The notes: generated by a model not told the origin, from the sequence alone. A stretch of DNA of 64,000 bases from Schmidtea polychroa (GCA_044892525.1 CM097887.1:60884001-60948000); one strand, 5' to 3'; numbered from the stretch's first letter, positions 5,001 through 51,748 are shown. Made by a program: numbers and translations.

Positions 5001-8000
5001 ACTTATATTACGATATTTTTAGAGTAATATATAAAAGCAAAAAATAAAACGGAAGCATAATAAACATCAAAATAACAAAAGTGCAAAAATTAATAAAAAC
5101 TTTAATGTGAAAATTAATATTGATCGGAGGAAATGGGTATGGTTGGATGCCAAATCATGAGATGAATCAAAAAACTATAATAAAAATTTAGGGAGGGGTC
5201 CCTATAGAAAGTTATAAAAAATAATAAGCTAATTAAAAATTAATTAATCGCTAATTGAAAGCCCGAGTCAATGGGAAACCTGAAAGATGACGAAAACCCG
5301 GAGCGCACTGAGACCCGACTAATTAAACATACATCAAATGAATTTGAAGCGAACTAGGCCGAGTGCCGATTAGGAGTTGGTAAGTTAAATTGATAGTATT
5401 CCAATAATCCCCCAGAAGATTTAAAAATAATGTTTAGCCCATATTAGATAAACGCCTTTCAGAAAAGTTTAAAAGGAAAAGCTGGTTGGTCGAAGGAAAC
5501 GATATCAGATCATATAACGTTTACAAAACTCCAAGAGAAACTAAAGAGAAAATTCAAGTAAAGTTAAAGAGAATTATAAATTATCGTACCAGAAAATCTG
5601 TTATAAATAATAGTGGAAATAATATTGTGGATGTATAAATAATAAATATGGAAATATATTGACTAATTGTAATTGTGGTAAAATTTGAATAAAGTTGTTG
5701 TGTTGGGTCTTAGTTATTTGTTTGGAAAAGGAGTCATAGATAACAAACTTCAATAAATCCCAACCCGAGTTACTTCAAAACTTAATATTGAGATTGAAGG
5801 TCTTGAATGAAAAGGAGGAGTTAAAATATGGCACGCTGTATTATTGCCTTTTTAGAAAATTGCTAGAAGTAATGATTGTTCAGTGGGAACGGTACATTAA
5901 GACAGGCAGGGAAAGGACAGTTGAAAGATTTGCACATTGGATCGAAAGAGAAGCAGAAAAAAACCGTAGAGCAATCAGTGTTTTATTTGGAGAAAGACCA
6001 ACAAAAAGCAGAAACATAAAATCAACAACAAACTTCGGAAATGCGAATAGGCACAATAACTTTGCGGACAGAAGACCAAAGATAGAAGTTAGTGGCGTGC
6101 GAAAAAGGGAACTAATCTGTATTAAATGTGAAGGAAACCATTACTTAAATCAATGTTCCTAAAGCTGAATGTCAATGAACGACATGAGTTTGTGACGAAA
6201 AAGTGACTTTGTTAAAATTGTCTTGCAACAGCTCACATGGTAAGAGAATGGGAAATAAATTATATCTTGATCAAAACCTTTTCTCGAATACAGTATTGTT
6301 GGCGTCGCCACTCGGTTGAAACTAGATAGAATTACCTACTAGGGGATGAAGGTCTCTTATCGAACTTAGAAACACAAAATTGTCGAACCTAAGTAGTGAA
6401 CCAAATTTTATAATTTTATAGAAATATGACAAATTTCCATATCATATTAAAATCTTTTAATAAAAACCGCAAAAGAAAATCAAAAAATGGTGTCGTGAAT
6501 ATTTTTAATTCAAGTGGTGTGTCGTGGCTCTAAAAAGGATTAATAACACTTTTTTAAATAAATTATATATTGAAAATATTCTATAAAAATAGCTAAGATT
6601 TCTTACAGTCAAATAATACTTTATTAACCCAGATAAACCTACTGTCCTGTTAAAAGGACATTAGGTAATCTGTTACAAATTAAAATATTTTCTCACAAGA
6701 GAACATTATTTTTGATACAATTTTTGATTATGGCGACACTAGATGGTATGGCAATGACAATGCATATTTTTTTATTAGTTGCCATTGGGCTTTTGTACCG
6801 ATAGCACGTTTGAATTTGTAAAAATATTATCAAATATAAGAATAAAAAGTTTCAGGAATAACTTGGTTAAATATTTCTTTACTAAATTTCACTATTAACA
6901 ATTTTTTATTTTATTTCAGTTTCCAAACGTTAGTACCCAGCTTGAATCAGGTAAATGTAGGAACAACGATTTTTGTTAGGGTGAAGTTTTTGAATCCTCC
7001 TGCTAATCTCGTGTTAGTTGTTGTCGAATGCTATGTTACTGGTGGCAGCGTAAAAATTTATTTAATTCAAAATAGGTAAGAATTAATATTTTTTGTTACC
7101 ACTTAAGATATTAATTATTTAATTAAAAAATTAAATATCTATGAGAATAAATATTCTAATTGTAAAGTTTTTATGAATTTATTTTATCAAAAATATTAAT
7201 CTAATTAATCGATTAATTCAATAAATTTTATATCTACGTTTAAATTACTTTCATTATATTATTTGGTTTTAAAATGCAAATGATTTCAAATTAAAAAAAA
7301 TAAACTTTTTAAAATCTTTGAGATCCAGTGGCGTAACTAGTGGACGCCGGACCCTGCGTTGCGGGGGCCCAAAATTATTACTAAAAAAATATTTACAATC
7401 ATTTTCTGAAACTTTTTTCCCGCAGTTATATTTGCCTACAAACATAAAACTATCATTGAATAGCGGCTGCTGTGAATAACTATGTATTAAACTTTAACCG
7501 AAAAATTTAAGTGGAAATATTTTACATTGCGCTGGGGGCCCAAATTTTGAAGTTGAGATCTTTCATAACTTCCAAAAATAAGAAAAATTATAACGACTAA
7601 AATTACCATTTAAATGGTCCAGTTGCATCTTAATGAGTTTTGCTGGGGAAAACCTAACCACTGGATTCTGATCTTTTTATTGAATTCCTCAGTAATGTAA
7701 AATGAAGTATTCATGACGAAACGAATTGAAATGTAATAACCAAAAGTTTAATTAATTAAAGTGACTGATTATTTAATTTTTTTGTTGAATTGCTAATGCA
7801 AGGTAGACTAGGTGATATATTGACATCAAAATATTTGTATATATGTTAGACTTATTATTTTTTATATGTATACATGAAAACTTTGAAGCTGAGATACGAT
7901 AAAAGAACTGGAAATACTTTATCATTTGACTAAAATTAATAAAAGGTTGAGCAGTTTTTGCATTATATGAATAGTTTTGAACGTGTGTTTTCATATTCTG

Positions 8001-12559: not shown

Positions 12560-12730
12560 TGACAAAAACACCAAATTCAAAATAAAAATTTAAAGTACAA
12601 AATATTAATTAAAAATCAAAAATTTTAAAAAATGAAAATTTTCTGGGGGAAACTGGTATGGGCGGATGCTAAATAATGAGACGAGTTCAGCTATAATAAA
12701 ATAAAATCAATGGGGGGTCCCTAAAAGGAA
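12560..12730 (+). mobile_element. BEL/Pao-type LTR copy 2, 5' piece (interrupted by the 16.2-kb element)
   Basis: GGTATGG.CGGATGC.AAAT.ATGAGA.GA...CTATAATAAAA...GGGGTCCCTA matches copy 1 at ~5135-5205. The homology resumes at 28934. Confidence 0.6.
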
Positions 12731-14271
12731 TGTTGGTTACTTAGGGGTGTATCATTTTTACATTTTAAAATGCGTTAGGGTAATCATAATCGTTCGACTC
12801 TTTCCTAAGCACCTCCATGACTATTAAAATTTAAACCATTTGTGTACCCATGGTGACGACCATGTTGGTACTGTACACAAAGGCGAAAAAAACAATGAGC
12901 AGGTGAGCTCTATTACTAAAACTACTCCCCATTGTATTTTCTTTTCGGGTTCTAGACTGCCGATAGAAGGTCTTACGTCATTATTCACTGTGTATGCTAT
13001 TTTTGAATCGTTGTTGGTCCTCAATTACGGGTATTTCTAATTGTTCTCTTATAAAATTTTGTGCAGGGATCCGCCCTTATTTTCCAGCTAATAATTATTG
13101 TTCTACACTTCCTACAATATCTAAATTATCCTTTGAAAAATTTGAGCAGGGATTGGCCCTTATTTTCAAGTTAATCCACGCTTCCCATAATATTTACGTT
13201 ATACTTCAAAAAATTTGAGCAGGGATCTGCCTGTATTCTCAGTCCTAACCTACATTTGACCACAGTACTTCCAGCGATAGGACCCGTGAGGAAGCCCCCA
13301 CATTCCGGCCCAATCCAGCTGCGCGATTGAAAAACCAGCATACCCACCAGTCTGAGCATCCCGAAGGTACCTCAAACCATGATATGCTGAATCTCAATTC
13401 AGCGGTACTAACGTTCGTAATCAGTTAGTATAAAAATTGAACACAATAAAAATTATTATTTAATATCTGCAACTAAATGAAATTAAACAATTAAAAGAAA
13501 ATAACAAAAGAAAATTTAACTAAAAATTTTATTGTATATTAAATTTAATCATCTCATAAAATTACTACAACAATAAAAAATAAATTACCAAATCCACGTG
13601 GGCATAAAATCGAAAACTGAGAGCTTCACTGGCTACAACTAAATTTTGATGTTAGAGAAAAAGTAGTCTTAAATGAATTTGTGATCAGTATTTATACTGA
13701 TTTTTCATGCATTTGCTGCCACTCTATCCAATCAGAGTGCGAGAAATTTTTAATTAGTCTTGCATACCTGCATGAGTGTGTGCAATTGTTTATTTGTTTT
13801 AATTCAATAAATTTAATTAATTTCTTATTTAATTTTTATTAATTTTAATTTTATAAATTTTATAATTTAAATAATTTGAGTTATATTAATTTTTATTAAT
13901 TTAAACATTTTTATTCTTTAAATTTAATAAGTTAAATAACCATTTAATTCTATAAACTTTACAATTTATATAATGCTAACTAATTTTATTATTTTTGACG
14001 ATTTAATTTTTATATTGTTTAAATAATTTTCAACTAATTCTATTTTATATTTTATTATTTTTCTATTTAAATTTTTAAGTGTTGAATTTTTGTTAAATTT
14101 ATTTATCTCTTATTCTATTATACGGGGTTTATTGGTTCTTAATGTGTGATGTAATTTATTTCATTTATTTTAAATTAAACCTTGGTCATAAATTTTTCAA
14201 CTTTGCGGTTTTTGTGTTAGGTATTTTCGATCGATTAAAACAAACTCTCAGTTCTCGGCTTCAGCCCAACA
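12731..14271 (-). repeat. 3' LTR (1541 bp)
   Basis: Near-identical to 27392-28933. By eye only a 1-nt G-run indel (~12780) and one T/C substitution (~13534) differ. Contains three internal AAAATTTGAGCAGGGATCtGCCCTTATTTTC-like motifs (~13053, ~13136, ~13208). Confidence 0.95.
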
Positions 14272-15270
14272 AATCACTCCGGGACCCGTTAAAATTGCGT
14301 CCCGCAATTCTGTTAGACATATGAATTTCCCAGGTCATAGTCTATTACATTCCCATTTACCTATAAACATACTATAATAGCTTAAGACATGTTAGAATTC
14401 AATTAGCAGAAAAAGGTCTAAGCTCAAATTCAAGCAGTTGCCACATACAGTGACTGGTCATAATACATATACATACTGATACAGTGTCCAAACTCAAGTA
14501 CGAGTCATATGCAAAAGTTTTATTTCTGGATAAATTCATCAGTCGGTTGTTTCTCTCGCTTCTGGGCTCGGCCTCCGATCTTTCGTCTGGGTTGTGTAGG
14601 CATGTTTGGTCCCTGCTGTTGATTTTCATAGTTAGCTCGTAATATTTACTGAAGATCATAGGATTTTCTCTATCAGGGTTTGACTGTTGTTCCCTGATTC
14701 TCTTTGAATTTTTAGGCTGGGATTCCGGTTTTCTGGATCATTTGATGGTAGTTGACAGTCTTCGGGTGATTTGACACATAGATTTTTCTTTTGGTTTTTC
14801 TCGGTGGTTTTTGTTTACGGTATTGCTCTTATTAAGGAATTTTCTTTCTCTAATGGGTAACTCAAATTATCTTCGATTTGCGTCTTAGTTAGCTTGATTT
14901 GACTAACTTTCCAATGTCACTGGGGCTGTGACTTTGTCTCATTTATCAGGATCTTTTACCGTTCTCCTTAGTTTTGGGTTCCAAATTAGATATTACTTTT
15001 CGATATTCGTTTAACTCATTCTTTCTGGGTTTGTACTTTTATCTTTCTTCTGGATTTATATTCTTTCTTCTCATTTGAGCCTCTGTTCTCCTTTACCATT
15101 GTAAGGGTTCAAATTTAGTATTTTTCCAACTGATTACTTGATCCATTTCTATTTATACATCGATCTTTTGCCACATTATACATCAATTTATACCTATACA
15201 TCTAGTACATTTAATTTGCTATTTATACATCAATTTTTACATATGTTCACTTCCTTTTTACTATTTTCAT

Positions 15271-17832
15271 CTACACTTCCTCTTTAATTTCCGCCACATC
15301 CTTTGGACTACCCTTCTTCTTTTCCTTGGCCGTCACCATTTGTGTCTCTTCTGCCCCATCTTTGCATTTTTTTCGATTACTCGTTATTTCATTGATTCTT
15401 AATTCGGCTGACCTTGCTTCTTCTTTTAGTCGGAGTATCGTTGTCTTAAGTACCTCATTTTCTCTTGTTTTATTTTCTGCAACTTTTCTCCATATCATTA
15501 TCAATTCATCCTGTCTCGTTTCTTTTACAACCAGTTCCATTATTAACCTGCACTGTTCCACACATTGTCTCCTCAATTCCTCGTATGCGTTGGGTTTCAC
15601 CTGTTCCTTCACGTCATTTGTCCGTCTCTGTACATTTGTCGACTGTTGTTTTATTAACATTGGAGATTGATGTTTTCGTATCCCTGACTGACAAATTCTG
15701 TTTTCGACATAGTTTTTATTGTTTTGTTCTGTGGCGTATTCTCGTGACTGATCTCTCACTGGATTGGTCCCATTCGGACAGTTATTGACCAAATGTCCAG
15801 TTCTTTTACATTCGTAACACCTTTTTATGCGGCGACATTTATTTTTTCCGTGCTCATTTTTCTGACAATTCCCATGCGTCTTATCGAAGAACCGATAGCG
15901 CTCATTATGTCCTTGTGGTTGGTATTCGTTCCCGTAATTGTTTGTACTTGCGTCCCATTCGATATCTGGTTCGCACTCGCTTTCAGTTTTTAACGTGTTT
16001 ATGTCATGGTACTTTTCTTGCGTTTTTTCATTATTTCGTTTTTCGTGATTTTCGCCATTCTCCGATTCGCGCTTTTCCGGGATTACTGCAATTCCAACCT
16101 GACTATCGATGCCGGTATAATCTCTCTGATTGTCCTCAAATGGTTTGATGTTTTGATGGTCTAATATTACCTGTTCCAGTTTTTCAATTATTTCGCTTTC
16201 GATCCTTGAGTCCGGAATTTTTTGTAAATCTATTTCGTTGCTCGTTATCATTCTCATCATATTGATTTGTATTACTCTTTTTTGTTCTCTTTCCCACATT
16301 CTTTCTATCTTTTCCTTCTGGTTGTCGTTGGTGGTTAGTCTCATTATATCCATTTTTAAAAGTTCTTCCTTTCTCGTTCTCCAATATTTTTCTTCTCTTC
16401 TTGCCTGAGGTTCTTTTCGTTTACTCCATCTTTCTTCCGCTTCTCGTGCTTCCGCGATCTGTAAGGTATTCCATTCTCGTTGTTGTTTTGTTCGGATATT
16501 TTGAATTTGTAATGTGCCTCCCACACATTGTAATACATTTATTCTTGATTGTTGTTTTCCTTCCGCTTGAAACTGATAATCGATCATGTTACTGCACAGT
16601 CCTGTGAGAATTGTTATTTGATTTTGTATTTCAGCTAGTTGCTTTGCTGACGTATCCCTATTGTCACTCCATTGTTGGTTTCTTTTATTCGTACATGCAA
16701 CTGCTAGATGGTCTCCTTGTCCGCACGAGAAACATTTTTTGGATACTCCACATCTTACTGCGGTATGTCCTTTCTTACCGCAATTCCAACATCTTCTTTG
16801 CCCATGACATTCATCGAGCCAGTGTCCTTGTCTCTTGCAGTCATCACAAAATTTTCCAATGTTTCTATTATTCAACCTCTTGCTTTTGTTGTCATTTTCG
16901 TTTCTTTGATTATTGTTGTTATGACTCCACTGTCTGTGGTGTTGGGGTTGATTATCTGCGATAGGCCTCCTACTTGGTGGTTGTGTTACTTTGTTGTACA
17001 TTTCACATACATTCGCTGCCTCTACTGCCTTGTCCAGCGTCTTGCAGATTTTGCATCCGACTACACCTTTAATGTCATCTCGTCGCAATCCTTTTACAAA
17101 TTGGGTTACTAGTTGTGTTTCCATATCCTTTTCACTGAACAGCGGTTTGGCTAGACGTCTTAGTGCGCTTGCGTAAAGTATATATGATTCATTCACTGCT
17201 TGTCCTCGATTGAAGAATTCTAGAAATTTGTATTGCGCATCTTTTGCTTCTCCAAATGTTTTTATCAGAGCTTCCTTAATTTCTTTCCAGGTTTTTAGTG
17301 GGGTTGTACACTCTTTTATTCCGACGTACCAATTAAACGCGTCGTCTGCTAGATATATTGGGAGTCTTCTCACTATCATTTCGGGTGTCCATTTTAGAGC
17401 ATCGCAATAAGATTCAAAATGTTGGATGAAGTTTGATAGTTTGTTCGGTTTTCCATCGAATTTTTCGCCATTGTATTTTCCTTGAAAATTGAATATCTCC
17501 ATTTCACTGAGTCTCTTGTTGATCGCTTCCATTTGGGCTGCTGTATCTACCATCTCTAATTGTATTCTTTTTCCGTTTGTCTTTTCTTTTATTAGGTTTA
17601 TGTCACTTTTATTATTTCTGTTTTCAGATAGAGTTTTTCCTTCCTGAGGTTCTGATACGCGTATTACGCTTCTTGGCCTATTGTTTTCGAAATCCTTTTC
17701 ACTGCTTCCTTTTATGGATCGACTTTTGGTCTTTGAGATGTCTTTTTGATTTTGCTTTTTGATTTCTTGTGCTTGCGTGGGTTTAATAGTTCGTCTTCCT
17801 TTCTTTGCAACTTTTAATTCTTCTTCTTTCAA
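15271..17832 (-). CDS. gag: Retrotransposon Gag-like polyprotein (853-codon open frame; first ATG at 17553)
   Basis: Capsid-like segment KFDGKPNKLSNFIQHFESYCDALKW...LPIYLADDAFNWY...TWKEIKEALIKTF...YASALRRLA...FVKGL. CCHC knuckles CDDCKRQGHWLDEC, CWNCGKKGHTAVRC, CFSCGQGDHLAVAC and a distal CYECKRTGHLVNNC. Coiled-coil-like tail. Confidence 0.88.
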   Translation of the reverse strand: MKEEELKVAKKGRRTIKPTQAQEIKKQNQKDISKTKSRSIKGSSEKDFENNRPRSVIRVSEPQEGKTLSENRNNKSDINLIKEKTNGKRIQLEMVDTAAQMEAINKRLSEMEIFNFQGKYNGEKFDGKPNKLSNFIQHFESYCDALKWTPEMIVRRLPIYLADDAFNWYVGIKECTTPLKTWKEIKEALIKTFGEAKDAQYKFLEFFNRGQAVNESYILYASALRRLAKPLFSEKDMETQLVTQFVKGLRRDDIKGVVGCKICKTLDKAVEAANVCEMYNKVTQPPSRRPIADNQPQHHRQWSHNNNNQRNENDNKSKRLNNRNIGKFCDDCKRQGHWLDECHGQRRCWNCGKKGHTAVRCGVSKKCFSCGQGDHLAVACTNKRNQQWSDNRDTSAKQLAEIQNQITILTGLCSNMIDYQFQAEGKQQSRINVLQCVGGTLQIQNIRTKQQREWNTLQIAEAREAEERWSKRKEPQARREEKYWRTRKEELLKMDIMRLTTNDNQKEKIERMWEREQKRVIQINMMRMITSNEIDLQKIPDSRIESEIIEKLEQVILDHQNIKPFEDNQRDYTGIDSQVGIAVIPEKRESENGENHEKRNNEKTQEKYHDINTLKTESECEPDIEWDASTNNYGNEYQPQGHNERYRFFDKTHGNCQKNEHGKNKCRRIKRCYECKRTGHLVNNCPNGTNPVRDQSREYATEQNNKNYVENRICQSGIRKHQSPMLIKQQSTNVQRRTNDVKEQVKPNAYEELRRQCVEQCRLIMELVVKETRQDELIMIWRKVAENKTRENEVLKTTILRLKEEARSAELRINEITSNRKKCKDGAEETQMVTAKEKKKGSPKDVAEIKEEV

Positions 17833-18433
17833 TAAACTTGGTTCTATTATTAGCTGTTTTGATCTGGTATGCTTTGTTATTGGTTCAATATTTCTGAACT
17901 TGGCTTAATTATTTGACAATAACTTCTATTTGATTGCTGATACTTGGCTATTGACTTGATTGATTGATTTACCTGAATAGAAAAATATCACTTCTCCCTA
18001 TCGTTTATTATATTTATAAATTATAATATATATATTATATAGTGTAATTGCAATATTTTTACTTTGGTTTCTTTGGGTACCGGCATATCTTAATATTCAT
18101 TTCGTCGTTATTTTTGTTTACGCATTGGTCCTCAAATTATTCTTAACTCGATTCTCCATTATCCATTCTATATCCTCATCTATTCTCCTACATGGTTGTC
18201 TATTTTCAATTCGTTTTTCGTCTTTTTCCTTCACAATCTTATTTATTTTCAGTTATATATCCGTCAATGACTTCGGCCGTATTCTCGTTTATATTCTCGT
18301 CTATGTTTCTTCCAGGTACTCATCTATATTCTCGTTTATCTTTCCTTTTACATTCTCGTCTATATTCACGTCTGTTATTTCCGTTTCTATTCTTAGCCAT
18401 TATTCTCATTTATATTCGTGTCAATTATTCGTG

Positions 18434-19170
18434 TCTATTATTTGCATCTATTATTTGCATCTATTATTCGCATCTATTATTCGCATCTATTATTCGCATC
18501 TATTATTCGCATCTATTATTCGCATCTATTATTCGCATCTATTATTCGCATCTATTATTCGCATCTATTATTCGCATCTATTATTCGCATCTATTATTCG
18601 CATCTATTATTCGCATCTATTATTCGCATCTATTATTCGCATCTATTATTCGCATCTATTATTCGCATCTATTATTCGCATCTATTATTCGCATCTATTA
18701 TTCGCATCTATTATTCGCATCTATTATTCGCATCTATTATTCGCATCTATTATTCGCATCTATTATTCACATTTATTATTCGCATCTATTATTTGCATCT
18801 ATTATTCGCATCTATTATTCGCATCTATTATTCACATTTATTATTCGCATCTATTATTTGCATCTATTATTCGCATCTATTATTCGCATCTATTATTCGC
18901 ATCTATTATTCGCATCTATTATTCGCATCTATTATTCGCATCTATTATTCGCATCTATTATTCGCATCTATTATTCGCATCTATTATTCGCATCTATTAT
19001 TCGCATCTATTATTCGCATCTATTATTCGCATCTATTATTCGCATCTATTATTCGCATCTATTATTCGCATCTATTATTCGCATCTATTATTCGCATCTA
19101 TTATTCGCATCTATTATTCGCATCTATTATTCGCATCTATTATTCGCATCTATTATTCGCATCTATTATT
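18434..19170. repeat. 13-bp tandem array (CTATTATTCGCAT) x ~57 inside the LTR element
   Basis: Highly homogeneous units. A variant block (TTCACATTT...TTTGCAT) recurs 65 bp apart (18766, 18831). Degenerate TATATTCTCGTC-like units precede the array at ~18280-18430. Confidence 0.97.
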
Positions 19171-22100
19171 CATCTACTGGTTATCTTATGAATTTAATCT
19201 TTAAGCTCTAATTGTTTCTCTTTACTTCGCTTTGTCTTTTTCCAGTTACTTGGACTTCCTTTTATTTCTCCTACATGCTTCTTTTTACTACTCTTCCAGG
19301 TTTTCCCCACTCTCCTGACTTCGGATGCGAAACACTCGCACTGGTCGATCTCCGATCGTGTGGTGATCAGTCACACGCAGAGATGTTCCAGTATATGCGA
19401 TGGGCCCTGTTCCACATCTTTCGTCAGAACAGTTGGTACTTTCCTGGGCCTTATCCGCACTACGCTGAGCGTAGCTCATAGGTTGTGGATTTCTTAAACC
19501 CAAAAAAAAATTTTCCTTATTCATTTGCTCTCAATTTTCGTAAGACTTTATTCTCATTTTTACGTCGTGCTCTTACTCTACTTATCTCGATTACCCTTGG
19601 TCCTTCTTCATTATTCTAAATATATCCCCATCTCTTGTCTAGTTAACGTCTTATTGCTATCGCTTTTACTCTTACCGCTTCGGTTGACTTGTTTCTCGTT
19701 AATATGCTCACTATTTCCTCAGGCAGATCCCTCTCGCATTATTTGTTAATATTAGTTTATCCATTTTATTCGTTACCCTTCTATTCGTTAATGATTTATT
19801 TACGAAACATCCCTGCTCAATTTTGTAATTTATCGCTTCCGTATTTGTATATTTTCCTCAGCTTTGATTTTTTATGTTACCTCTCACTGATTTCCCCGTC
19901 ATAATGTTTCTCATTTCGTATATTTTACGTTTTCAAAATTTGTTTGTTGTTTTTCTGTTTATGGGCCTCTTTGTTCCACTCCCTATATTTTAGGTTTTTA
20001 ACTTATTTCCGCGTCTATTTGATATTTTACTTTTGGCGCGTAACTTTGATTGGTCATTTATTTTCATTATCTCATTTAATTGTTTATCTATGTCTACATA
20101 TACACGCATATACTTATACATATACCCTTATCCATAAACATATATTCATATACTCATATCCACCTATATCTGGATATCTACATCTGTACGCATTTCTCCC
20201 TAGCTGTTCGTGGAGTGGTTGATATTATTGCATTTATCGTTTCTGAATTTATTCAATCTCACAATTGCAACTTTTTGTTTTGTAATAAAAGTAGACAGTT
20301 CGTTCGTTTTTCATTATTGTAACTTTTTGTTCCATCGTAAAAGTAGGCAGTATGTTCGTTTTCCATAACTAAAACTTTTGTTCCATGTTTCTAATTGGTC
20401 TCATTTTTGTTAGTATCTCTCGTTATTTTAATTTTCCGTGTCATGATGTTAAGCTTTCACTTTTGTTCTATTATAATGTATCGCGTTTCATTTTATATTT
20501 GTTGTTTCTCGTAATTTTGATTTTTCATTCAAATGTCTTTGCCCTTGCTTTCTTTCTGTGAATTTGTTACTTGTTGTTTTCTGTTTGTTCATTTCGTTTT
20601 GTGTTTTCCTTGTCATTTTTATTGTGTTTATTTGTTCACATTCTATTTTGTTATATGTGCGCTCTTCATTTTCTGTCCATCATGTTTTTGTATAATTTTC
20701 CCGATTGTTCCTATTACTACTCATGTCCATTTTGACTTTCATCTTGATCTGCCGTTTGTTGTTGTCCTAGTTTGATCTCATTTTTCCTCCGCGTCTTCGC
20801 AAAATGTCGTCCCCGACATTCATTATTTTATTTATTATTATGTGTTCTCTCGGTTCTCAGTATTTTGTTCTCGTGTCCTCTCTACCATATTTTCTAAACG
20901 TCCATTTTCTCTGATTAATTTTCCTTATTCTTAAATAAGTGTAGATTTTAATATTTTTGATTTTCGCATTATTTTATCTTTGTTTATGGTGATCGGTCCT
21001 CTACTTTTATTATATATCATTTTTGGTTGGGGTGTATACACTGATATATGCGATTATTTATATACAATTAGTCCTCTTTTTGGCACTCAGTTCTGCCATT
21101 ACCGTCTCTTTTCCATGTTATGACCCTGCTGATAGTTCGTTGTTTTTCCTCCTTTACGCAAAATACGGATACGGTGTTCTTCTGATCAGTCCACCTCCCC
21201 TCGGAATATTTTACTCATCATCTTATAACAATTTTCAATGAATACTATGCTGGATTTGTTATAACTATTTGTACTTCATCTTCAGCTCCCTGCGTTTTCG
21301 TTTTCCCGTTTCCTTTTCCCGTCTGATATTCTCCGTTACATTCTGACCATATCTTTCTCTCTTTGTTTTCCTCAGTTTTCTTAGTAGTTCATTTCTTGCA
21401 TTCGGCTTTATCATTAGAGTCGTTCCATTTCTCTTTACTTTAGTTCAATTTTTCCTCTCTGATCCTTGATTATTCTCTCATGAACAAATTCATTATTCAA
21501 ATTTTCGATTAGATTGTTCCTCCATGAGATTCCTTGCTTCTGTATAGCTAATGTTATTTACTATAATATGACGCTTTTCTGCTTCCATATTTCTCCTGTG
21601 GTGGTATTGGGATTGATTTCCAATGTGATCCGTCTCATTCTATCAATTCACCTACATTGATTCCTAATCTTTTATCTGAATTTTATTTCATTTTACTTCC
21701 CGAAGTTATATACTAATCATACCGCGCTAATATATATACATATATTTTTATATAATCATATATCTTTATATATTCATTGTTCACACTATATATAGTCATA
21801 ACCCTTTCTATGTATGTGGGTTCGTAATTCGTGATACTTTCTAGATCTCTTTTCACTGTTCTTAGTTTAGTGTTCTGTACTCTTTTATTTACTGTATATT
21901 TCACCCGTCTGGTTCTAATTGTGTCCCATTCTCTATTGTTGACGTTGGATAATTTTTCATAGTTCGTTCCGGTCATTAATATGAGTATCGTGCGTATAAC
22001 CGTCTCTTATATTCATATTACTTTGGCTAACCTTGAGCTTCCTGGTTTCTTTCGCTGGATCATTTTCGTTGATATCCATCATGCTATTCTCGTATCTTGT

Positions 22101-25100
22101 ATATTTACTTTCATTGATTTCTCTATATACTTTGTTATTCTCCCGAGTCGTTTACATAAGTTTTAGAATTCATTTTCTACGTACTCTTGGTGTCTGTGAT
22201 GTTCGCCTATTTTGCAAAGTTTTTCACTGCCTTTTAACTTAGCTCCCGTGCCTTTGTCACGGAGATTTTATTTCGATTTATTTTTGCTCCATTTTTATAC
22301 TGTGATTTTATTTTTTAACAGTTACTCTCGATTGTCTTTGGTTCAGATTTATTTTTCGAGTTACCAGCAAGTTTTATCCCTTCATCTATCCTACAGACAA
22401 GTTTAGTTCTTGTGTTTGTTCTTTTACTTAACGCTTTTGTTCATTCTAGGTGTTGATGATATATAGTTATTATTTCTATTCGTGATTTTTCGATGTCATT
22501 TCCATGTCTTCACTTTCTTTTACTTTCAGTAAAATATGTTGATTCGCTCTGTTTCGTCTGGTAAACTCATCTCTTTTATCCTTAATGTCGTTCGTCTCAG
22601 ATTCGCATTTGCAGAAGCTAAGGCATGGTTATCATTTGTTTTATTTATCGTTTGGTGCTTTGTTATTGTCGAGTTTTATCGTATTTTACATTTGAATGTT
22701 TATTCAATCGTTTTTAGGGTTTAATCTTTTCCTTTTACCGACGCTTTCAACATCCTTGGGTACTCTACCCTTGGCTTGGTATGTGTAGAAAGTATTACAG
22801 GTAGAGCATAATTGGTGTAAACATTCCTTATCATATACTGTATGTATCGACAACTCAATACCAGAATCATATGTAGCTTACTTTTTCATAAACCCCCTAA
22901 TCCATACATTCTTATATATCATATGCATATAATCATTCATACTATTAATTCTTCATCTATCAGTGTACCTTCCAAGAAGTTTCCATACTACGAAGACCAT
23001 CACTACATTCATTCACCAATTTGGCAGTATTTGTTCAAAAATTCACATTTCATAGTTTTATAACATAAATATTATCGCGAGTCAGAACAATCATTCCACA
23101 ACAAAACTCAAAACAGACTACTAATTCATCATTCCAATGCAATTTAATCCACGAAGAATATCTCTATTTGTGCCCACAAAAGCAATACATTGATTATCCC
23201 ATTACTGACTAACAGTAATTATTTAAGTGCATATAAATTTATATACAAGTACAAAATGCCATAGTAACATAATTAATAATCATTTTCATGCATGCAAATT
23301 TGACAATTTTCTGTTTTATTTTAACCAATTAGATCAAAAATAGAAAGTCATACATAATTTTATTAGAAACTGAATTTTGAAATACTTATAAAACATACTG
23401 GCTTTAATTAGTAAAGTCCATAAAATCAATAAAAAATATATATAACCATTCCAACTATACTGTACTGAAAAGTCGCTCTCTTGAAAATACAGGAACAATC
23501 TACTGGAATAAATTTATGGTGTAACAGAAGCCGATAAAAATCCATATTTTTAGCTGACACATCAACATACGAACACACTTGATTTTGTATGACCGGGTAT
23601 TGACCGACACATCCACCATACATACAGATGCTGGATCTGCACAGAAAAGCGACATAGAAAGAGCTTTGTTTACCGCCCAGCTTTGTTTCAGCACTGAACC
23701 TCGCGGTGTTATCAATGCCAATCCCTTCGTTAACTTTCTACAACCACTCTGCATTGCAAGGCCGCCCCATACACTGACTGATAACGCAACATTATCACTC
23801 AACCATGGAACAAACACCTCTCATCATTGCGGTAGTGCTCAAATGCGCGTCTGAACACGCCATTGAGTCAAATCACGCGTTGCGCATCACTGCGTCTCCT
23901 CCGATATTTAGGTATCGACACATCAAATGGACCGCCTACTTGATTGGCAGATAAATTGTGGCCTAATGCCACCAGCGCCGCTCTCGAGTGGTCTCTCAAT
24001 CAAAATGAAATATTGATAGCGGCATTTCACAAAGGGAGATAATAAGTTTATTTCGAAGTGAGAATTGACCGACGTTATGTTATGCATACACACAACCCGT
24101 ACATGCATACGTATAGTAAGAGAGAGCGCCAGATTTAGAACCGCACATAGATTGTGCATCATCCTTGGTTACTCCCGCTAATATTTTTAAATCAGATTTG
24201 AATACATTCAATTGAGTATTAAAAACGTCGAAAATATTTTCTCAAGTCGTTGAATCTTGGCACCAAATTTATAAATTCTTCAGTAACGTTAGTTAACGTC
24301 TACACCTCGAATAAATATTATATATTATTTTTGACGTATGCATATATTTGATGCTGGTTTAGTCAATCCGATCCAATGTCGGCCAAATTAACTAATATGT
24401 TACCTTCAAGTTTAAAAATTTGCTTTTAATGTACGTATGAAGATGTTATTTGTTTTTGTAGTAGGAGTATTTGATCCATTTGTTTCATCACTTCCTTATA
24501 ATAATAATTATAATAATAATTCTTATTGACAAAAGTAAGTCTACAATCCCGTGCTCTTAAAAATTATATTTTTTTTTTCTAATTGGTATTTCCAAATTTA
24601 ATAATATGTAATTTGTTAATAATTGTTTATTGCCGTGTTTTACATTTTCTAAACTTCTTATCATGAGTATTGTAGATAGATGTTCTACTCTCTGTAATAT
24701 TGTACGTTTGTATAACCATTTTTCAAACTTTTGAACGTAGATATTACGTTGAAATATTACCGTAAATAAATCATATCTTTATATAACCTTGATAGAAAAT
24801 AATAAATGAATTATGTAATAATAAGAAATATAATTCAATAATCAATATATCATCAGATAATTTAATTGATCTATTTATGGTTATCAAAGCAATGAATATT
24901 GAATAAAAATCAATAATTTCAGTACGTATGTTGATAATTATTAATCTTTATATTTAATTCTTTTATTAATGTATAAATCACATCGGAGTTAAACAGCAAA
25001 ACGTCAAAAATCGACGGTTAATGTCGCAAAGGATTTTGTTATTTGAATTGCACCATTGGCGTTTAATACGACCACCGCTCTGAGATTCATAAATCATCAA

Positions 25101-27366
25101 TCAATGAAATTTATTGAGAAAGACGCTAAACCGATAAGACACAATGTGGATATTTATTTATTATTCATTACCTGAAGTAGCAAGCCTGTTTCGGTTGTGT
25201 TGCTGTTCAAACAGTTCTTTGATATAATTATCTGCCAATCATCCTGCCTGCACTTAACAGACATTTCAATACATCTGTGCCAAGTGTCTGTGTGTTTGTC
25301 CATTGATTTCATGAAAAAATTTAGACTGGCATACATCATAGTCAATTACCAATTGGACTTGTTGTGACAAGTTGTGACATGTCATGTCACCCCAAATTCG
25401 CACACCGGAATTGCCGGTTCTTACACACACAATAAATACGTAACCGGCGGGAGAGCACACAATCCAATCCATCCAAAATTTTCTGCCAGAGAAAAATCTC
25501 AACACTCTGAACATTAAATTTTTGCACACCGGTAAGTTTATGTGTTGCTATTTTTTATCGATTAATTTTTTGATTATGTAGAAACTTTTCTGGATTTAGC
25601 TCATTCATCTGAAAAACCCAACAAGAAGAATGTCAATGGGTGAATGTGCGTAAAACTATGGATCGACCAATCAAATATGGATTTCACAATGATTCACTGA
25701 ATTTCTTACTGAACGAAATATTTATTTTTCAATGTTTCGAGTGGAAGTTATCCATATCTGGATCGCATTTCATCCGACACACGCAAGTCAATCCAATCCA
25801 ACAAGTATCCCCACACTTCTGGTATCGAACATTGAAATGAAGCCTTCGGAAGATTGAGCTGCCTACCAGATATGAAAATATTGCTACTTGGATTATGCTG
25901 TCAAAATCATTTCTAGAACCTCTCCAAGTTCCAAATCTCCCATATAAACTTAATGATTCGTGGGCAGGAGTCGAAAAGCCTTCTTATTCACTCTGCGGCT
26001 TCGCAGTATTGTCACTATATGCCTCAAAGAGAACCAGATTTTGTAAATCACTTCGATGGAATTTATCTCAGACCTATTGGTCCTGAAACAATTTTCTATT
26101 TGCCACATTTGGTGATATAATATGATAATAGAATTGGAGGTATGAGTTTCAACCATTTAACAAATTTATGTGGATTATATGTAAATGATAACATTTTAAT
26201 AAATAAAAAAAAACTTTAATTTTCTATGTTAATAAATCTTATTTTCTATACTTTGGTTTTTAATTTTGGATTTTGATATATCATTTTCTAATTAGGTATT
26301 TAATACCTCAGTAATTTTTTCTATCTTGTATTTTGCTTCGTACGGTTACGAGGTTGCTAACCCCTACTTCAGATCTTACGTTGTGATCGACCTCATTGTT
26401 TCGAATTGTTTTATGATCAATTTTTAGATGAATTTCTGTGGATTTATTTCATTGTAAGGTAAGTCAATTATATTTTCGCTATACTATTTAAATTCGTCCA
26501 ATATTTTTACGCGATTTTCTGGTGATCTCACTTTTATACACTTTACGCGTTCTGATTCTCCTAGATGTATTTGGTTCTAAATAAATCTTTTCGAATTTAA
26601 TTTTTGTATTTTGATTTCTCTTTTGATGCTTTTATAATTTACTTTTTGTGATTTTATCTAAGTTAATTTTTATTTTTAAATTTCTATTTTTATAGTTAAA
26701 TTAAATTTTATTCCAACCTATTTAATTCCTTACTAAAATAATTTTTACTTTTGATTCCCTTTTACCCCAATTAAATTTTTTTTTTTGGATTAACTTATTT
26801 TTATAAATTTTAAATTATAATTTTCCTATTGTTATTTGAGCATGGTTTTTCGGCAGCATCAAATTTCGACTTTATCATTACGAATTTATTATGATTATTT
26901 GGTCGTGGTTTTTCCGATCAAAGAAATGTAAATATATCCTGTTTTTTATTTATTAACCTAAATTTTTCCAAAATTTTATTTTTTGTAGTTGTTAATTAGA
27001 AAATTTTTCTAATCCAAGCAATTCTATTTCCCGAAACAAAAATAATTTTTATTTTTATTCATTTTAATTTTATGTGTTCGTTTGGTTCTTTTGCCTAAAT
27101 AAATTTTATTTCTAGCATAATTCCTAACTTAAGTTTCCCAATTTTCGTTCTAACTAATTTTCCGTTTACCATAATTAAATTTTATTTCTAAAACAGTTTT
27201 TTCTTTAATTAATTTTAATTTCTAATTTTCTTAATTTAATATTTTCCTTTTAGCACAATTTCTCATTTTGATGTTGAAGTTGAATTTTCCGAATAATTGC
27301 CATTTTTGAGTTTGAAAATTTATTATTTATTAATGCTTTTCTGCCAAAAACAATTTATAAACCTAG

Positions 27367-27384
27367 ATCCCGGCTGAGCCCCCA
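27367..27384 (-). promoter_or_regulatory. Primer-binding site, tRNA-Pro-like
   Basis: Minus strand TGGGGGCTCAGCCGGGAT versus the canonical tRNA-Pro PBS TGGGGGCTCGTCCGGGAT (16/18). It starts 7 nt inside the 5' LTR end. Confidence 0.75.
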
Positions 27385-27391
27385 AAAATCA

Positions 27392-28933
27392 TGTTGGTTA
27401 CTTAGGGGTGTATCATTTTTACATTTTAAAATGCGTTAGGGGTAATCATAATCGTTCGACTCTTTCCTAAGCACCTCCATGACTATTAAAATTTAAACCA
27501 TTTGTGTACCCATGGTGACGACCATGTTGGTACTGTACACAAAGGCGAAAAAAACAATGAGCAGGTGAGCTCTATTACTAAAACTACTCCCCATTGTATT
27601 TTCTTTTCGGGTTCTAGACTGCCGATAGAAGGTCTTACGTCATTATTCACTGTGTATGCTATTTTTGAATCGTTGTTGGTCCTCAATTACGGGTATTTCT
27701 AATTGTTCTCTTATAAAATTTTGTGCAGGGATCCGCCCTTATTTTCCAGCTAATAATTATTGTTCTACACTTCCTACAATATCTAAATTATCCTTTGAAA
27801 AATTTGAGCAGGGATTGGCCCTTATTTTCAAGTTAATCCACGCTTCCCATAATATTTACGTTATACTTCAAAAAATTTGAGCAGGGATCTGCCTGTATTC
27901 TCAGTCCTAACCTACATTTGACCACAGTACTTCCAGCGATAGGACCCGTGAGGAAGCCCCCACATTCCGGCCCAATCCAGCTGCGCGATTGAAAAACCAG
28001 CATACCCACCAGTCTGAGCATCCCGAAGGTACCTCAAACCATGATATGCTGAATCTCAATTCAGCGGTACTAACGTTCGTAATCAGTTAGTATAAAAATT
28101 GAACACAATAAAAATTATTATTTAATATCTGCAACTAAATGAAATTAAACAATTAAAAGAAAATAACAAAAGAAAATTTAACTAAAAATTTTATTGCATA
28201 TTAAATTTAATCATCTCATAAAATTACTACAACAATAAAAAATAAATTACCAAATCCACGTGGGCATAAAATCGAAAACTGAGAGCTTCACTGGCTACAA
28301 CTAAATTTTGATGTTAGAGAAAAAGTAGTCTTAAATGAATTTGTGATCAGTATTTATACTGATTTTTCATGCATTTGCTGCCACTCTATCCAATCAGAGT
28401 GCGAGAAATTTTTAATTAGTCTTGCATACCTGCATGAGTGTGTGCAATTGTTTATTTGTTTTAATTCAATAAATTTAATTAATTTCTTATTTAATTTTTA
28501 TTAATTTTAATTTTATAAATTTTATAATTTAAATAATTTGAGTTATATTAATTTTTATTAATTTAAACATTTTTATTCTTTAAATTTAATAAGTTAAATA
28601 ACCATTTAATTCTATAAACTTTACAATTTATATAATGCTAACTAATTTTATTATTTTTGACGATTTAATTTTTATATTGTTTAAATAATTTTCAACTAAT
28701 TCTATTTTATATTTTATTATTTTTCTATTTAAATTTTTAAGTGTTGAATTTTTGTTAAATTTATTTATCTCTTATTCTATTATACGGGGTTTATTGGTTC
28801 TTAATGTGTGATGTAATTTATTTCATTTATTTTAAATTAAACCTTGGTCATAAATTTTTCAACTTTGCGGTTTTTGTGTTAGGTATTTTCGATCGATTAA
28901 AACAAACTCTCAGTTCTCGGCTTCAGCCCAACA
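27392..28933 (-). repeat. 5' LTR (1542 bp)
   Basis: Direct repeat of 12731-14271, bounded by TGTTGG...CCAACA and followed by the GGAA TSD. Confidence 0.95.
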
Positions 28934-29598
28934 GGAATAAATTACAAAAAACAAAAATTAATTAAAAATTAATTAACTAATGGAAAACCCGAGCTAATGG
29001 GAAACCCGAGCTAATGGAGAACCCGAGCTAATGGGAAACCCGATACAATTGAAAACCCGAGCGAATTGAGAAATCCAATTTCGGGAAGGCAATTAATTTA
29101 GCCTGATAAAAAGTAATAAGCGCCGTCAAAGAAAATGAACAAATTCCCTTCAATTAAATTAGATCTCCAAGAGGAAGCCCGGGGGGAAATAAAACCAAAA
29201 ATAATTGGCAAAAATGAAGTCAATTACCAAGCGAGTATAAAAGCAACTGGCAAGAAAACAAAATGCCAGTTGGTCGAAGAAAAGAAAATAGAAGTTTGAC
29301 GAGAGCGAGAAAGGAAATATTAAAGTTAGTAGAAATTAAACCATTTAAAAAAAAATCGAACGTACCAGAAAGGGATATCTCCCGTTGGAAGATCTACCCC
29401 TGCGTGAGATTTGTTGGCAAATTGAAAAGTGCAGACAAAACCTGATTGTATCAAATGTGAGTAGACTAATACAAGTGTAAAAGTTAACTGCATCAGTGTC
29501 AATAAAGATTTTGTGTTGGGTTATTTATTTATTTATTTATTTGGAAAAGAACACAAAGGAGTCAGACCGTAGTACCGACTTGCATTAAAAACCCAACA
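28934..29598 (+). mobile_element. BEL/Pao-type LTR copy 2, 3' piece, with a 17-bp repeat (TGGGAAACCCGAGCTAA x5, 28981-29065)
   Basis: Continues the homology to copy 1 (5205-5765) from the point where 12730 stops, and ends AAACCCAACA. Confidence 0.6.
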
Positions 29599-31341: not shown

Positions 31342-32431
31342 TTATACTAGCACGGTTCTATTTGCAGTAATTTGAACTTCATTTTCAAATACTCCATATA
31401 TAATAACATGTACCGGTTCAGTAACGGCCCTTGCAAACTTTATATTCAGTCGTAAAGTCCCGTTTTGTGGTAGTTGACTCTGATTTAAATCAAAATCGGG
31501 GACTAAAACAAATGTGAAAAATGGGTATCTGGTTTTAAATTCTTCAAGAGTTATTCCACAATTCAAGTTTATATCTAAATACCCCAAATTTCTAACAATA
31601 CTCTGCATATATGTAGCACAGTAATTATCACTTTCGTAATCTTGAGTATTTGTTTCTCTATAATCAGTATTTTTAGACAAAGTCAATGATGTAACACCAA
31701 AGTTTTTGAAAATTGAGCTGGAAGTAGTATATGATTCATTATATTGTGTTTTACTTTGAAATGTTATCAGGATGAAATTAGGCATTCTTCTGTCACCAAA
31801 TATTTGTTCTTTATAGAATGATGAAGCACCTTTAGCAATAGCAAATTGTACAATTTCTTTTGTTTTTAATGGATAAATTGCATGTTTTAAATTAAGACCC
31901 AATTGATGTCCAGCTAATACTGATGGGTCCACTCGAACTCTTCTCACCAGTAATTTTGCATCATATTGGTGCACCTGCACTAGTAAGAAATAATGCAGAA
32001 TCGGACCTTTTCAGTCTAATGTGTACATTAACTCCTGGGAGCAAATATTTCGGTTGATCCATAAAGTCGAGTTGTAATGATGAGCACATGGTGAATAATT
32101 TTGAGCCTTTAACCCACTTTTTTCTTTCATCATCTGTTGCTGCATAACCCATAAGACTAAGACAGGTATTTTTAGTATCAGAATTGTAATTTAAAATAGT
32201 TTCTAACAAGGCCTTGAGAATGAATGTCTTATTTCCGCCCTCAATTTTGATATTATTAAATCCCAACACTGCATCTTTAAACAGAGTATGAAACAGGAAA
32301 TTGTTCGGTATTACATCTGCATTAGCATCCAAAACCTTTCTATCTTTATCTACAACCTTGATCTGAACAGTCAATAAAGTATCGTTCAAATCTAAATATT
32401 CAGTTTGGGATATATGATACTCCCGATTCAC
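31342..32431 (-). pseudogene. Polinton/adintovirus-type major capsid protein (hexon-like), frameshifted
   Basis: Two overlapping ORFs (32431-31961, 31980-31342): EYLDLNDTLL...PNNFLFHTLFKD...LETILNY...QPKYLLPGVNVHIRLKRS, then DAKLLVRRVRVDPS...YP...P..I.I.F....YN.SY...F.NFG.TSLTL...FF.F.L.PD...GTLRLNIKFA......VIIYG.FEN..QI...R.V. One frameshift near 31965. Confidence 0.8.
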
Positions 32432-35955: not shown

Positions 35956-38046
35956 ATGGTTATCAAACGTAAGAATTGGTCATATTATTTATTTTTATAT
36001 TTGCATTTGTTTCTATATTAATTAATTTGTTATTTTTTGAATTATTTAAAAATTATGGAAAATAGTAAGATGATTTTTATACGTTATGCTTACTAAAAAT
36101 AAATATTATACAACCTTATTTAATGTTGATATGACAAATTTTAAACTTATATTAGGAACTAGATCATCGGTTGTTAAATCAACACCAACTAGATCTACTC
36201 CGCAGAAACGAAGACAAGATTCTGTTGGTGGCATACAGAAAAAAGCTAAATGTAAAATACAGAAAATGTTTTTTATTTAATTTTGATTTAGTTGATTTGT
36301 CATACGTTGAGGAGGAATGTAAAAGAACATTTATTACGCATATTCCTTCTTTTGTTATGTCAATGGGTAGTGGTGATACTGGTCAATTAGGTCTCGGCGA
36401 AGACGTTATGGAGAAGAAACGACCCACTCTTATTTCAAATTTAAATGATATAGTTGAAGTTCGTGCCGGTGGAATGCATTCAATTTGTTTGTCAAAAAGT
36501 GGGAAAGTATATACATTTGGTTGTAATGATGAAGAAGCGTTGGGTAGAAAAATAGTCGAAGATGAAGAAGCAACAGTTCCAGGTGAAGTTAAATTACCAG
36601 ATGATATTAAAGTTATTGATGTGAGTTTTTATTTTAAAATTAATTTTTATACGTGGATTATTTGATATATTATTAAATTTTCAGATAACTGCTGGTGATA
36701 ATCACAGTTCCATTTTAACCGATGATGGCAAAGTTTATATTTGGGGTAGTTTCAGAGATAATAACGGTCTAATCGGACTATTGAAACCGTTTGAGAAGTT
36801 ACCAACAGCAACACTAGTTCCGGTTGATAAGAAAATCATCAAAATTGCATCGGGAGAGAATCATTTTGCTATGCTTTCGGATAATGGGGAAATTTTTACA
36901 TTTGGTTGTGCGGAACAAGGTCAACTTGGTCGAGTAAGTCCGAATAATTTAGTGCGAGGCGGTCGAGGGGGGTTGTCACCGTTATTGATTCCTGGGTTAG
37001 TCAGAGTTCGCCATTCGGTAAAATTCTGTGATTTATGGGCGGGTTCTTTTTGCACCATCGCCAAATCGACCACTGGGGAAATATATGGATGCGGATTGAA
37101 TAATTACAAGCAATTAGGAGTCGAGGAAGATCTCGTTCAGTTAATGATGACGAGTTTGGGAGAATTCAATAATCTGAAAGAAGATTGGAAGAAATTTGCA
37201 TTCGGTCAACATCATACAGTTGCGCTTAGTGCGTCTAATCGAATTTACGTCATCGGTAGAGGAGAATATGGCAATCTCGGACAGGGTGACAATGAGCACA
37301 GAACAAAAGCTACCGAAGTGAAGTTGGATTCTAACGACGTTTTAACAGTCGCAGCTTGTAATCGAACTTCTTATGCATTGATGAACGATGGAACGGTTTA
37401 TTCCTGGGGTATGGGTAGTAGTTACCAATTGGGTCACGGTGATGACGAGGACGTCAATGTGCCAACGAAAATGGTTGGTAAACAGGTCTCGGAGAAGAAA
37501 ATCATTGAAATAAGCCCCGGCTTCCAGCATGTACTATTCAGGGCTATTGATAGGGACACGGTTCAATATGATGGCAAAATCGATGATGTTGCTGAAAACT
37601 CGAACGAAAAATTGGAGCCGGCTAAGCATCAAAATCTGGAATCATCAAACCAAATGGAAGTTGAAATTACTGTAACGGAACCTGAAATTTCTCCCATTCC
37701 AATAGAAACAGAAATTCTCGATGAAACAATCAACCCAGAAGATAAAGAAGAAAAATCAATAATTATTGAAGAATCAACGCCGTTGTTGATGGAAACTGTT
37801 CCAGAAGTACCAGTCACAGATCCTAAAGAAAAATTGGAAACAGTTCCCGAAGAGGAAGCAACATTAATTTTCACAGAAGAGGAGAAATCGCTAACTGCCG
37901 AGGAACCGAAGCCGGTGGAATTGGAAGCGTTTCCTGAAACCGTACAAGCAGTTACCGAAGAAAAAGAATCGGATAAAAGTGAAATAAATGATACAAACAA
38001 CAATGACCTTGATCAGATGGAAGTTGACGGGAACCAAGAGAGCTGA
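35956..38046 (+). CDS. RCC1: Regulator of chromosome condensation 1 (RanGEF); exons 35956-35968, 36156-36251, 36292-36620, 36685-38046; 599 aa
   Basis: GT/AG introns of consistent phase. Basic NLS-like N-terminus (MVIKRTRSS...QKRRQD...KKAK), then RCC1 repeats GSGDTGQLGLG, AGGMHSICL, GCNDEEALGR, TAGDNHS...WGSFRDNNG, SGENHF, GCAEQGQLGR, GLNNYKQLG, FGQHHT, GRGEYGNLG, WGMGSSYQLG, PGFQHVL, then a ~160-aa acidic tail. Confidence 0.92.
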
Positions 38047-51683: not shown

Positions 51684-51748
51684 CCTAAATTGTTGTTTGG
51701 TGATAAAGCGATAGTAATTATTAGGCTTATAATTCCCTTCTGTTTTAA

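Follow-up and report, generated by a model that had tools for sequence, protein, structure and literature searches.

A young and abundant LTR retrotransposon family of Schmidtea polychroa that keeps Gag, lacks pol and likely uses the enzymes of co-active Burro1-like elements

INTRODUCTION

Why some non-autonomous LTR elements retain gag yet drop pol is an unresolved question. It is raised by an element of 16.2 kb that lies in a 64,000-nt stretch of the planarian Schmidtea polychroa genome (GCA_044892525.1 CM097887.1:60884001-60948000), the whole of which is referred to here as the window. Schmidtea is the host of Burro1/GYPSM1, which the passages of PMC6431247 on it describe as a giant Gypsy-like element of more than 30 kb with a gag-env-pol ORF of about 4,800-4,870 aa, in which Env lies between gag and pol and in which ankyrin, retrotrans_gag and three CCHC knuckles are found. 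In this study, we asked how an element that codes for Gag and seemingly nothing else could have moved recently, and which element could have supplied the missing enzymes.

RESULTS

The element is oriented on the minus strand (28933 to 12731) and is bounded by two LTRs of 1,541 and 1,542 bp, with a single substitution and a single 1-bp indel between them; the LTRs have the ends TG...CA and are flanked at either side by the TSD GGAA. A spacer of 7 nt separates the 5' LTR from a PBS that is complementary at 18/18 positions to the 3' end (with CCA) of the tRNA-Pro(TGG) of the same genome. The sole long non-repeat ORF (15271-17904) has 877 codons from stop to stop with its first Met at residue 118; it starts 9.46 kb behind the PBS and ends 1.0 kb before the 3' LTR, and its product is laid out as a capsid, three CCHC knuckles, a charged region, a fourth knuckle and a predicted coiled tail. 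The first-pass annotation of the window had described near-identical LTRs with about two differences, a perfect GGAA TSD, a PBS and an uninterrupted Gag frame at the 3' end behind a leader of about 9.5 kb, and all of these points were reproduced. Two traits went beyond its observations, namely a 13-bp tandem array, of which between 4 and 55 exact units were counted among the fetched stretches, and the lack of a polypurine tract before the 3' LTR, where 11/20 nucleotides are purines. The features are as follows.

12727-12730, no strand: left TSD GGAA, from the flanking sequence
12731-14271, minus strand: 3' LTR of 1,541 bp, from the LTR alignment; at least 40 near-identical LTRs in the genome
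14272-14310, minus strand: 3' junction motif where a polypurine tract would be expected; 49/51 nt as in the Burro1-like candidate helper, LTR start included
14311-15270, minus strand: 3' untranslated stretch of about 1 kb, the last ~200 bp Burro1-like (E 1e-13)
15271-17904, minus strand: Gag ORF of 877 codons, the product likely ~760 aa from Met118 (17553)
16685-17574, minus strand: capsid and knuckle block, absent from the capsid-less subfamily
17971-17985, minus strand: candidate splice acceptor before gag, by motif only
18280-19171, no strand: 13-bp tandem array of ~60 units
19197-19410, minus strand: piece of ~210 bp like the Burro1 5'UTR (nhmmer E 1e-9 to 2e-9)
19411-23534, minus strand: A-rich non-coding leader, common to both subfamilies at 85-98% identity
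21380-21861, minus strand: decayed counterpart of the sequence that directly follows pol in Burro1, with an accessory ORF
23535-27363, minus strand: variable non-coding block, a mosaic among subfamilies
27367-27384, minus strand: PBS, 18/18 to tRNA-Pro(TGG); junction 31/31 nt as in the Burro1-like candidate helper
27392-28933, minus strand: 5' LTR of 1,542 bp, from the LTR alignment
28348-28361, minus strand: TATA-like motif in the 5' LTR, by motif only
28934-28937, no strand: right TSD GGAA, from the flanking sequence

The window element belongs to an abundant LTR family without pol, of which it is a young copy. In the genome searched (781 Mb, mostly in four large contigs) a junction of LTR end and PBS of the shared type occurs 656 times, and at least 350 of these junctions have the exact LTR end of the family. 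The best 40 of 3,593 candidates in the LTR search were all full length and 99-100% identical, and the best 136 of 6,583 candidates in the gag search were all at least 94% identical; by hand count, the full 877-codon frame is unbroken in about 75 of these 136. A typical copy measures 14.4-16.7 kb, larger ones containing insertions or tandem expansions, and tandem units with a common LTR also exist in the genome. Substitutions within LTR pairs number 0-4 in 20/21 cases and 25 in the remaining one, and the TSDs are exact 4-mers in 11/13 pairs, the misses being L045/46, which abuts another unit, and L058/59. The first-pass reading of the locus as a recently mobile Gag-only lineage without pol thus gains from the number of copies, the youth of their LTR pairs and the lack of pol in them. 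The other reading that it had to face, a one-off deletion in a Burro copy after insertion or a misassembly of such a copy, has a negligible probability: the same layout is found at dozens of loci with different TSDs, Gag is 31-35% and not ~99% identical to Burro Gags, Logan contigs from four runs cover the leader of the element, and no support for either event was found. The contigs of two runs that we guess to be RNA touch 29/30 and 24/30 bins of the leader and LTR.

No PR, RT, RH or IN was found in the six frames of 14272-27391 by a Pfam scan with stops read as X, a scan of low sensitivity on long frames, in which zf-CCHC itself dropped to E 0.09. When three pol-bearing polyproteins of the same genome were used in tblastn, no pol match with E <0.2 was obtained in the element, and only Gag and its knuckles were matched. 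Pol remnants in the leader, or pol in the other copies, would have spoken against a Gag-only lineage; none of the former was found by these Pfam and tblastn searches, and the latter was seen inside 0 of ~54 copies. Specifically, 17 units picked by their LTR gave Gag matches only, pol was absent inside 8 copies picked by gag, and no pol was present inside family sequence at 29 family junctions picked by the PBS. The PBS-picked sample was designed against bias toward the type of the window element: its junctions, on contig C1 and without a match among the listed gag matches, were chosen by eye and read 5-15 kb behind the PBS, and they comprised 12 capsid-keeping, 13 capsid-less and 4 truncated or interrupted copies. 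RT or IN matches with 31-47% identity occurred in 3/29 of these stretches but never within family sequence: in L144 and L157 they lie past the 3' LTR, and in L146 they are next to an interrupted copy. The longest frame among the 136 scored gag matches has 884 aa, as against 4,791-4,811 aa in the autonomous families. LTRs with a TSD, a PBS, a single Gag ORF and recent multi-copy spread, by which a Gag-only non-autonomous LTR element is recognized, are thus all present, and the lack of pol was seen in the ~54 copies read (mostly on contig C1) and in 136 gag frames, of 350+ copies.

The capsid part of Gag scores 29.5 bits with Pfam Retrotrans_gag (cut-off 24.1) and is joined by zf-CCHC, while a scan of the whole ORF gave zf-CCHC alone. 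In a structure model based on a 7-row alignment (mean pLDDT 69, pTM 0.36), the fold matches the capsids of dArc, Arc, PNMA2 and Ty3 with a best E of 4e-5, and as modelled Gag has the Ty3/Arc capsid fold. A placement in Ty3/Gypsy of this element, which has no RT, would be tentative; the modelled capsid is nearest to dArc/Ty3, and its candidate helper has the order PR-RT-RH-IN. Gag is 31-33% identical to that of the Burro1-like helper and 35% identical to that of a second Burro family (45% in the capsid core); the protein collections gave one match at 23%, and among the 150 representatives listed those that span the capsid are 23-37% identical. A tree joins it with both ~4,800-aa families (96/94), with the inner order open and long branches, and sets it apart from a 3,334-aa family. 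On account of these identities and of the grouping with both Burro families, it represents a third Burro-type Gag lineage for which no pol-bearing parent was found and whose cis ends track Burro1.

Selection on Gag was assessed with 20 copies that have the full frame. For shared changes, the uncorrected omega in the capsid was 0.28. With a transition correction (kappa 3.3, from the non-coding parts) omega was 0.66 overall (82 synonymous and 150 non-synonymous changes; p 0.002), 0.44 in the capsid (p 0.007), 0.60 around the knuckles (p 0.06) and 0.71 in the tail (p 0.05). These values suggest moderate purifying selection, for which the evidence is itself moderate since the copies are related and were picked for open frames. 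The pattern points to a likely protein of ~760 aa from Met118; the 117 codons that precede this Met have a corrected omega of 1.18, which gives no support for their translation.

RNase H matches lie ~12 kb behind some of the shared-type junctions, several of them in frames of up to 4,811 aa. Two Burro1-like elements of 30.5 and 30.6 kb are flanked by 4-bp TSDs, and the identity of their 4.18-kb LTRs is 99.97-100%. The one considered here as helper (30,509 bp, identical LTRs of 4,184 bp, 4-bp TSD) contains a frame of 4,811 aa with the order Gag-Env-PR-RT-RH-IN-Ank, including an Env-like fusion domain, and a separate TRAF/MATH ORF downstream of it. The label 'Burro1-like' refers to the architecture as described rather than to a direct comparison with published Burro sequences. 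This architecture, a GC content of 30% and the contig structure also point to a planarian host. The 5' junctions of helper and window element are identical at 31/31 nt including the tRNA-Pro PBS, and their 3' junctions, both without a polypurine tract, at 49/51 nt; the core of the 3' motif has 519 matches in the genome. Between their LTRs, likeness is limited to 131 bp of U5 (69%), and the LTR bodies are otherwise unrelated. An autonomous partner sharing LTR and PBS, as envisaged in the first-pass annotation, was therefore found in part: a Burro-like element has the same PBS and junctions, but the LTR body is not shared. As the junctions are shared but the Gags are just 31-33% identical, the family is an old separate Gag lineage and not a fresh deletion. 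A simple deletion derivative of Burro1 is ruled out by this Gag identity together with the unrelated LTR bodies.

The second Burro family, with a ~4,790-aa frame, BIR and TRAF accessory ORFs and 381 junctions, has the same PBS but differs in the spacer, and at the 3' junction it matches the window element less well. The RTs of the two autonomous Burro families are 92% identical and their Gags ~36%. The second family could also serve as helper; as a closer autonomous parent it was rejected, as its Gag is 35% identical over the whole length and 45% in the capsid core. Two further candidate parents were dismissed, the 3,334-aa family, in which Gag is 22-23% identical, the PBS is another and a true polypurine tract exists, and an older LTR type whose U5 is 75-77% alike, of which 34/35 occurrences are solo or 3' LTR ends and the one internal region is decayed Burro1-like sequence. 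No Gag closer than 45% was found at 11 odd-ended junctions or in this older LTR family.

It could be argued that a rare or unassembled autonomous master with the same Gag and LTR supplies Pol, and that the Burro1-like ends reflect common ancestry. Such a master would fit with a Gag that is equally distant from both Burro1 (31-33%) and the second Burro family (35%), and it could have escaped genome searches that score top candidates and a reading of ~54 of 350+ copies; a master of this kind is also considered for zebrafish Bik-1 in the passages of PMC12067270 on that family. However, none of the copies read has pol inside, no long frame occurs in the 136 scored gag matches, the odd-ended junctions and the older LTR family gave no closer Gag, and the family junctions are near-identical to those of Burro1, whereas those of the second Burro family differ. 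We therefore regard a hidden master as quite improbable, and the co-active Burro1-like element as the likely helper of the family.

The leader between 19.4 and 23.5 kb is A-rich and common to all subfamilies. Within it, the copy of the region behind Burro1 pol is 66% identical to its counterpart over 450 nt and holds an accessory ORF of 128 codons with 43% aa identity to the Burro post-pol ORF and six stops (E 2e-11); the approach that gave no pol remnants did detect this decayed ORF, which in the family copies listed is interrupted by stops or truncated. The order is permuted, with post-pol sequence followed by the 5'UTR-like piece, the 13-bp array and gag. This order could have arisen in two ways, by insertion of a UTR-gag cassette into the tail of a Burro that had lost pol, or by trimming of two elements in tandem. 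The block at 23.5-27.4 kb is built as a mosaic from non-coding modules, and these vary from one subfamily to another; just 3 of the listed places contain 23540-26600 in full. All 24/24 examined loci that match the variable block also carry family-type sequence, and no source outside family-like sequence was seen among the best 40 of 1,166 candidates. At one locus (L191) modules of the variable block stand alone, and this could be a relic or a source. A Pfam scan found no host gene in the leader and an Rfam scan gave one sub-threshold match and no structured RNA or ribozyme family; with this single match a structured RNA or ribozyme was discarded as content of the leader, and so was host-gene cargo, for which the same 40 candidates provide no outside source. 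The first-pass annotation had pictured large cargo; in the sense of captured host genes, this is not supported. As neither a host gene nor an Rfam family was found and all block-matching loci examined carry family-type sequence, the cargo reading is unproven, and the leader seems to be mostly rearranged, decayed Burro-type sequence with non-coding modules.

Many copies lack the sequence corresponding to 17574-16685 of the window, that is the capsid and the three knuckles. The gag that remains in them is 69-85% identical to that of the window element, with many stops and frameshifts, and has no blastn match to Burro1. Their LTR pairs are equally young, with 0-2 differences, and Gag is therefore not needed in cis for every member of the family. 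Burro1 5'UTR sequence is found in 25/25 capsid-less copies, as a piece of 0.4-1.1 kb that is at most 87% identical and stands directly before the gag remnant, versus 1/29 capsid-keeping copies, the single exception having a frameshifted gag. This contrast persists with the non-repeat part of the piece alone and may represent a single inherited event. Since the gag remnant does not match Burro1, later recombination is the likely source of the UTR piece, and this would imply shared particles.

These data also bear on the view that the family is a LARD-type passenger packaged wholly by helper Gag, with its own Gag otherwise kept or not yet decayed; a Gag kept in this way might compete with Burro assembly or restrict it, act as an RNA chaperone or be of use to the host. 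The youth of the capsid-less subfamily and omega values of just 0.44-0.71 are consistent with this view, as are the host roles reported for Gag-only Bik elements in the passages of PMC12067270. It does not readily explain why capsid-keeping copies, with one exception in 29, do without the Burro1 5'UTR piece present in all capsid-less copies, nor why ~75 of 136 scored gag matches are full-frame while the accessory ORF of the same elements is broken or shortened. We consider a mere passenger unlikely, if less so than a hidden master.

DISCUSSION

In this study, we describe a pol-less family that keeps Gag and likely transposes with the RT and integrase of co-active 30-kb Burro1-like elements, a reading to which we give a probability of roughly 80% on the basis of genomic sequence. 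According to this model, a full-length RNA starting in the 5' LTR would be primed by tRNA-Pro, copied by the helper RT and inserted by the helper integrase, which is very probable; that the helper RT uses the shared 3' motif and the helper integrase acts on the shared ends seems probable to the same high degree. As gag lies more than 9 kb behind the PBS, Gag would probably be translated from a spliced or internally started RNA. We lean slightly towards the idea that Gag helps to package the RNA of the element itself, in its own or in mixed particles that take up the helper polyprotein. The first-pass annotation had likewise proposed a particle of the element's own and Pol borrowed in trans; the former is suggested by the capsid fold and the selection on Gag, but a subfamily without the capsid moves as well. 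The Pol of the helper is fused to the helper's own Gag and its entry into a family particle thus needs a route; with an identity of 33-45% to the Gags of the helpers, the family capsid may fail to co-assemble with them. For the capsid-less subfamily, it is fairly probable that it swapped to helper packaging by gaining the Burro1 5'UTR via recombination. A chain of three tiers, in which an enveloped Burro is used by a satellite with its own capsid that takes helper enzymes, and in which a capsid-less offshoot uses the helper capsid, is put forward only tentatively. If true, the capsid/UTR swap would amount to a natural experiment that locates a Gypsy packaging signal.

Here, a single genome harbours a candidate helper, a family with Gag and an offshoot without it, each of them young and abundant, and the host is likely RNAi-tractable, so that helper dependence, the cis-preference of Gag and the location of the packaging signal are testable. 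With 350 copies of ~15 kb, an upper-side figure, the family may occupy about 5 Mb or ~0.7% of the 781 Mb, and it has more junction copies than the Burro1-type helper class; an annotation relying on RT domains would miss or misfile such a family.

When compared with Burro1/GYPSM1, the helper fits the description in its size of >30 kb, its single gag-env-pol ORF of ~4,800 aa, its Env, ankyrin and TRAF/MATH, and BIR occurs in the second family; the helpers differ from it in carrying MATH/BIR as separate downstream ORFs. The window element likewise has retrotrans_gag and three CCHC knuckles and a Burro-type related Gag, but is half the size, contains neither env nor pol, has its own 1.5-kb LTR and is 31-35% identical in Gag, and it is thus not itself an element of >30 kb with a single gag-env-pol ORF. 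Full-text searches, seen as listings apart from the papers named here, showed no report of a Gag-only Burro derivative, and the passages of PMC8532177 and PMC11410931 that mention Burro name none; the Grohme 2018 library and Repbase may hold a relative.

Plant TR-GAG elements are small and have a polypurine tract. The window element, with 16.2 kb, an animal host and 11/20 purines before the 3' LTR, does not belong to TR-GAG in the strict sense. Plants contain both 'semi-autonomous' TR-GAG elements and LARDs, as set out in the passages of PMC13570524 on them. As far as these go, the capsid-keeping subfamily resembles TR-GAG in keeping Gag without the enzymes, and the capsid-less subfamily resembles LARDs, being >4 kb, non-autonomous and non-coding, which the window copy with its coding Gag is not; animal host, Burro ancestry, lack of a polypurine tract and permuted order set the window element apart from both.

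Mammalian MaLR elements are short. Abundant ERVL-MaLR elements without pol and env show gag homology to autonomous ERV-L, and, in contrast to the planarian family, are described in the passages of PMC11359688 as the product of ancient amplification waves in an ERV lineage. A parallel in animals comes from the zebrafish BHIKHARI families Bik-1 and Bik-2, relatives of lokiretroviruses, which the passages of PMC12067270 present as recently active, non-autonomous and Gag-only, with 5-7 intact Gag copies and no pol-bearing copy. The novelty of an animal Gag-only lineage implied by the first-pass annotation was overstated, as Bik-1/2 and MaLR precede it in these sources. The planarian family shares with Bik its recent activity, animal host and Gag-only, non-autonomous nature, but differs from what is described there in its dozens of intact Gags, its length of 14-17 kb and a gag behind a leader of >9 kb, and it has a candidate helper, whereas those passages name none. 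Hyperparasitism among transposons is the subject of a review (PMC13269885). In the three-tier chain put forward tentatively above, the family, with a long-diverged capsid and packaging region of its own, would resemble a satellite virus with its own shell. Among these systems, the interest of the planarian family lies in its size, its permuted build, a candidate helper that can be named and the contrast between capsid loss and UTR gain.

Polinton-like insertions in family copies, and features of the window

Two young copies of the pol-less, Gag-keeping family are interrupted by large elements which, from their ORF motifs, we take to be Polinton-like, one in L063-L066 (C1:33.93-33.97 Mb) and the other in L155/L214 (C1:74.93-74.95 Mb; L-numbers denote stretches of the same genome read for comparison, and C1 and C3 are large contigs). 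Because the LTRs of the family copy in L063-L066 are 1 base apart, we regard the insertion that it carries as very recent. Frames related to an ORF of this insertion were found by sequence identity in the window, whose further features include an RCC1-like gene.

Further features of the window (position, strand, description)
5740-6162, +, 140-codon frame with a CCHC-like knuckle at its end
31342-32431, -, two frames related to the Polinton-like ORF
36156-38046, +, RCC1-like gene, two frames
45852-48181, -, broken DNA-transposase-like gene, three adjoining frames
51745-53630, MITE-like element of 1.9 kb, bounded by 364-bp inverted repeats (99.7% identical)

The front frame of the related pair is 66% identical to the ORF in L063-L066; the pair is presumably Polinton capsid-like, and Pfam gave no match. 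The two RCC1-like frames are likely parts of one gene split by a short intron. The DNA-transposase-like label is our assumption from motifs, with nothing above the Pfam cut-off for these frames, and the 140-codon frame is possibly a BEL/Pao gag fragment.

Arrays, primer tRNA genes and Burro-type families

Family copies also occur as head-to-tail arrays with common LTRs, of three units in L051-L055 (C3:4.35-4.39 Mb) and five at C1:77.26-77.32 Mb, and in the copy in L060-L061 (C1:149.27 Mb) a leader segment of ~840 bp is tandemly repeated about 14 times.

The predicted primer tRNA of this family and of both Burro families is tRNA-Pro(TGG), whose 3' motif has 2,164 matches genome-wide; its genes form tandem arrays with a period of ~475 bp (L195-L198, C1:130.90-130.95 Mb, and elsewhere). 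The LTR of the Burro1-like helper itself contains a 254-codon ORF (L091:8097-8858; also L213), for which Pfam gave no match. Between two active Burro-type families (L093 versus L080/L112), RT is 92% and IN 80% identical, whereas Gag is only ~36% identical, a contrast that would reflect either very fast change of Gag or module swapping.
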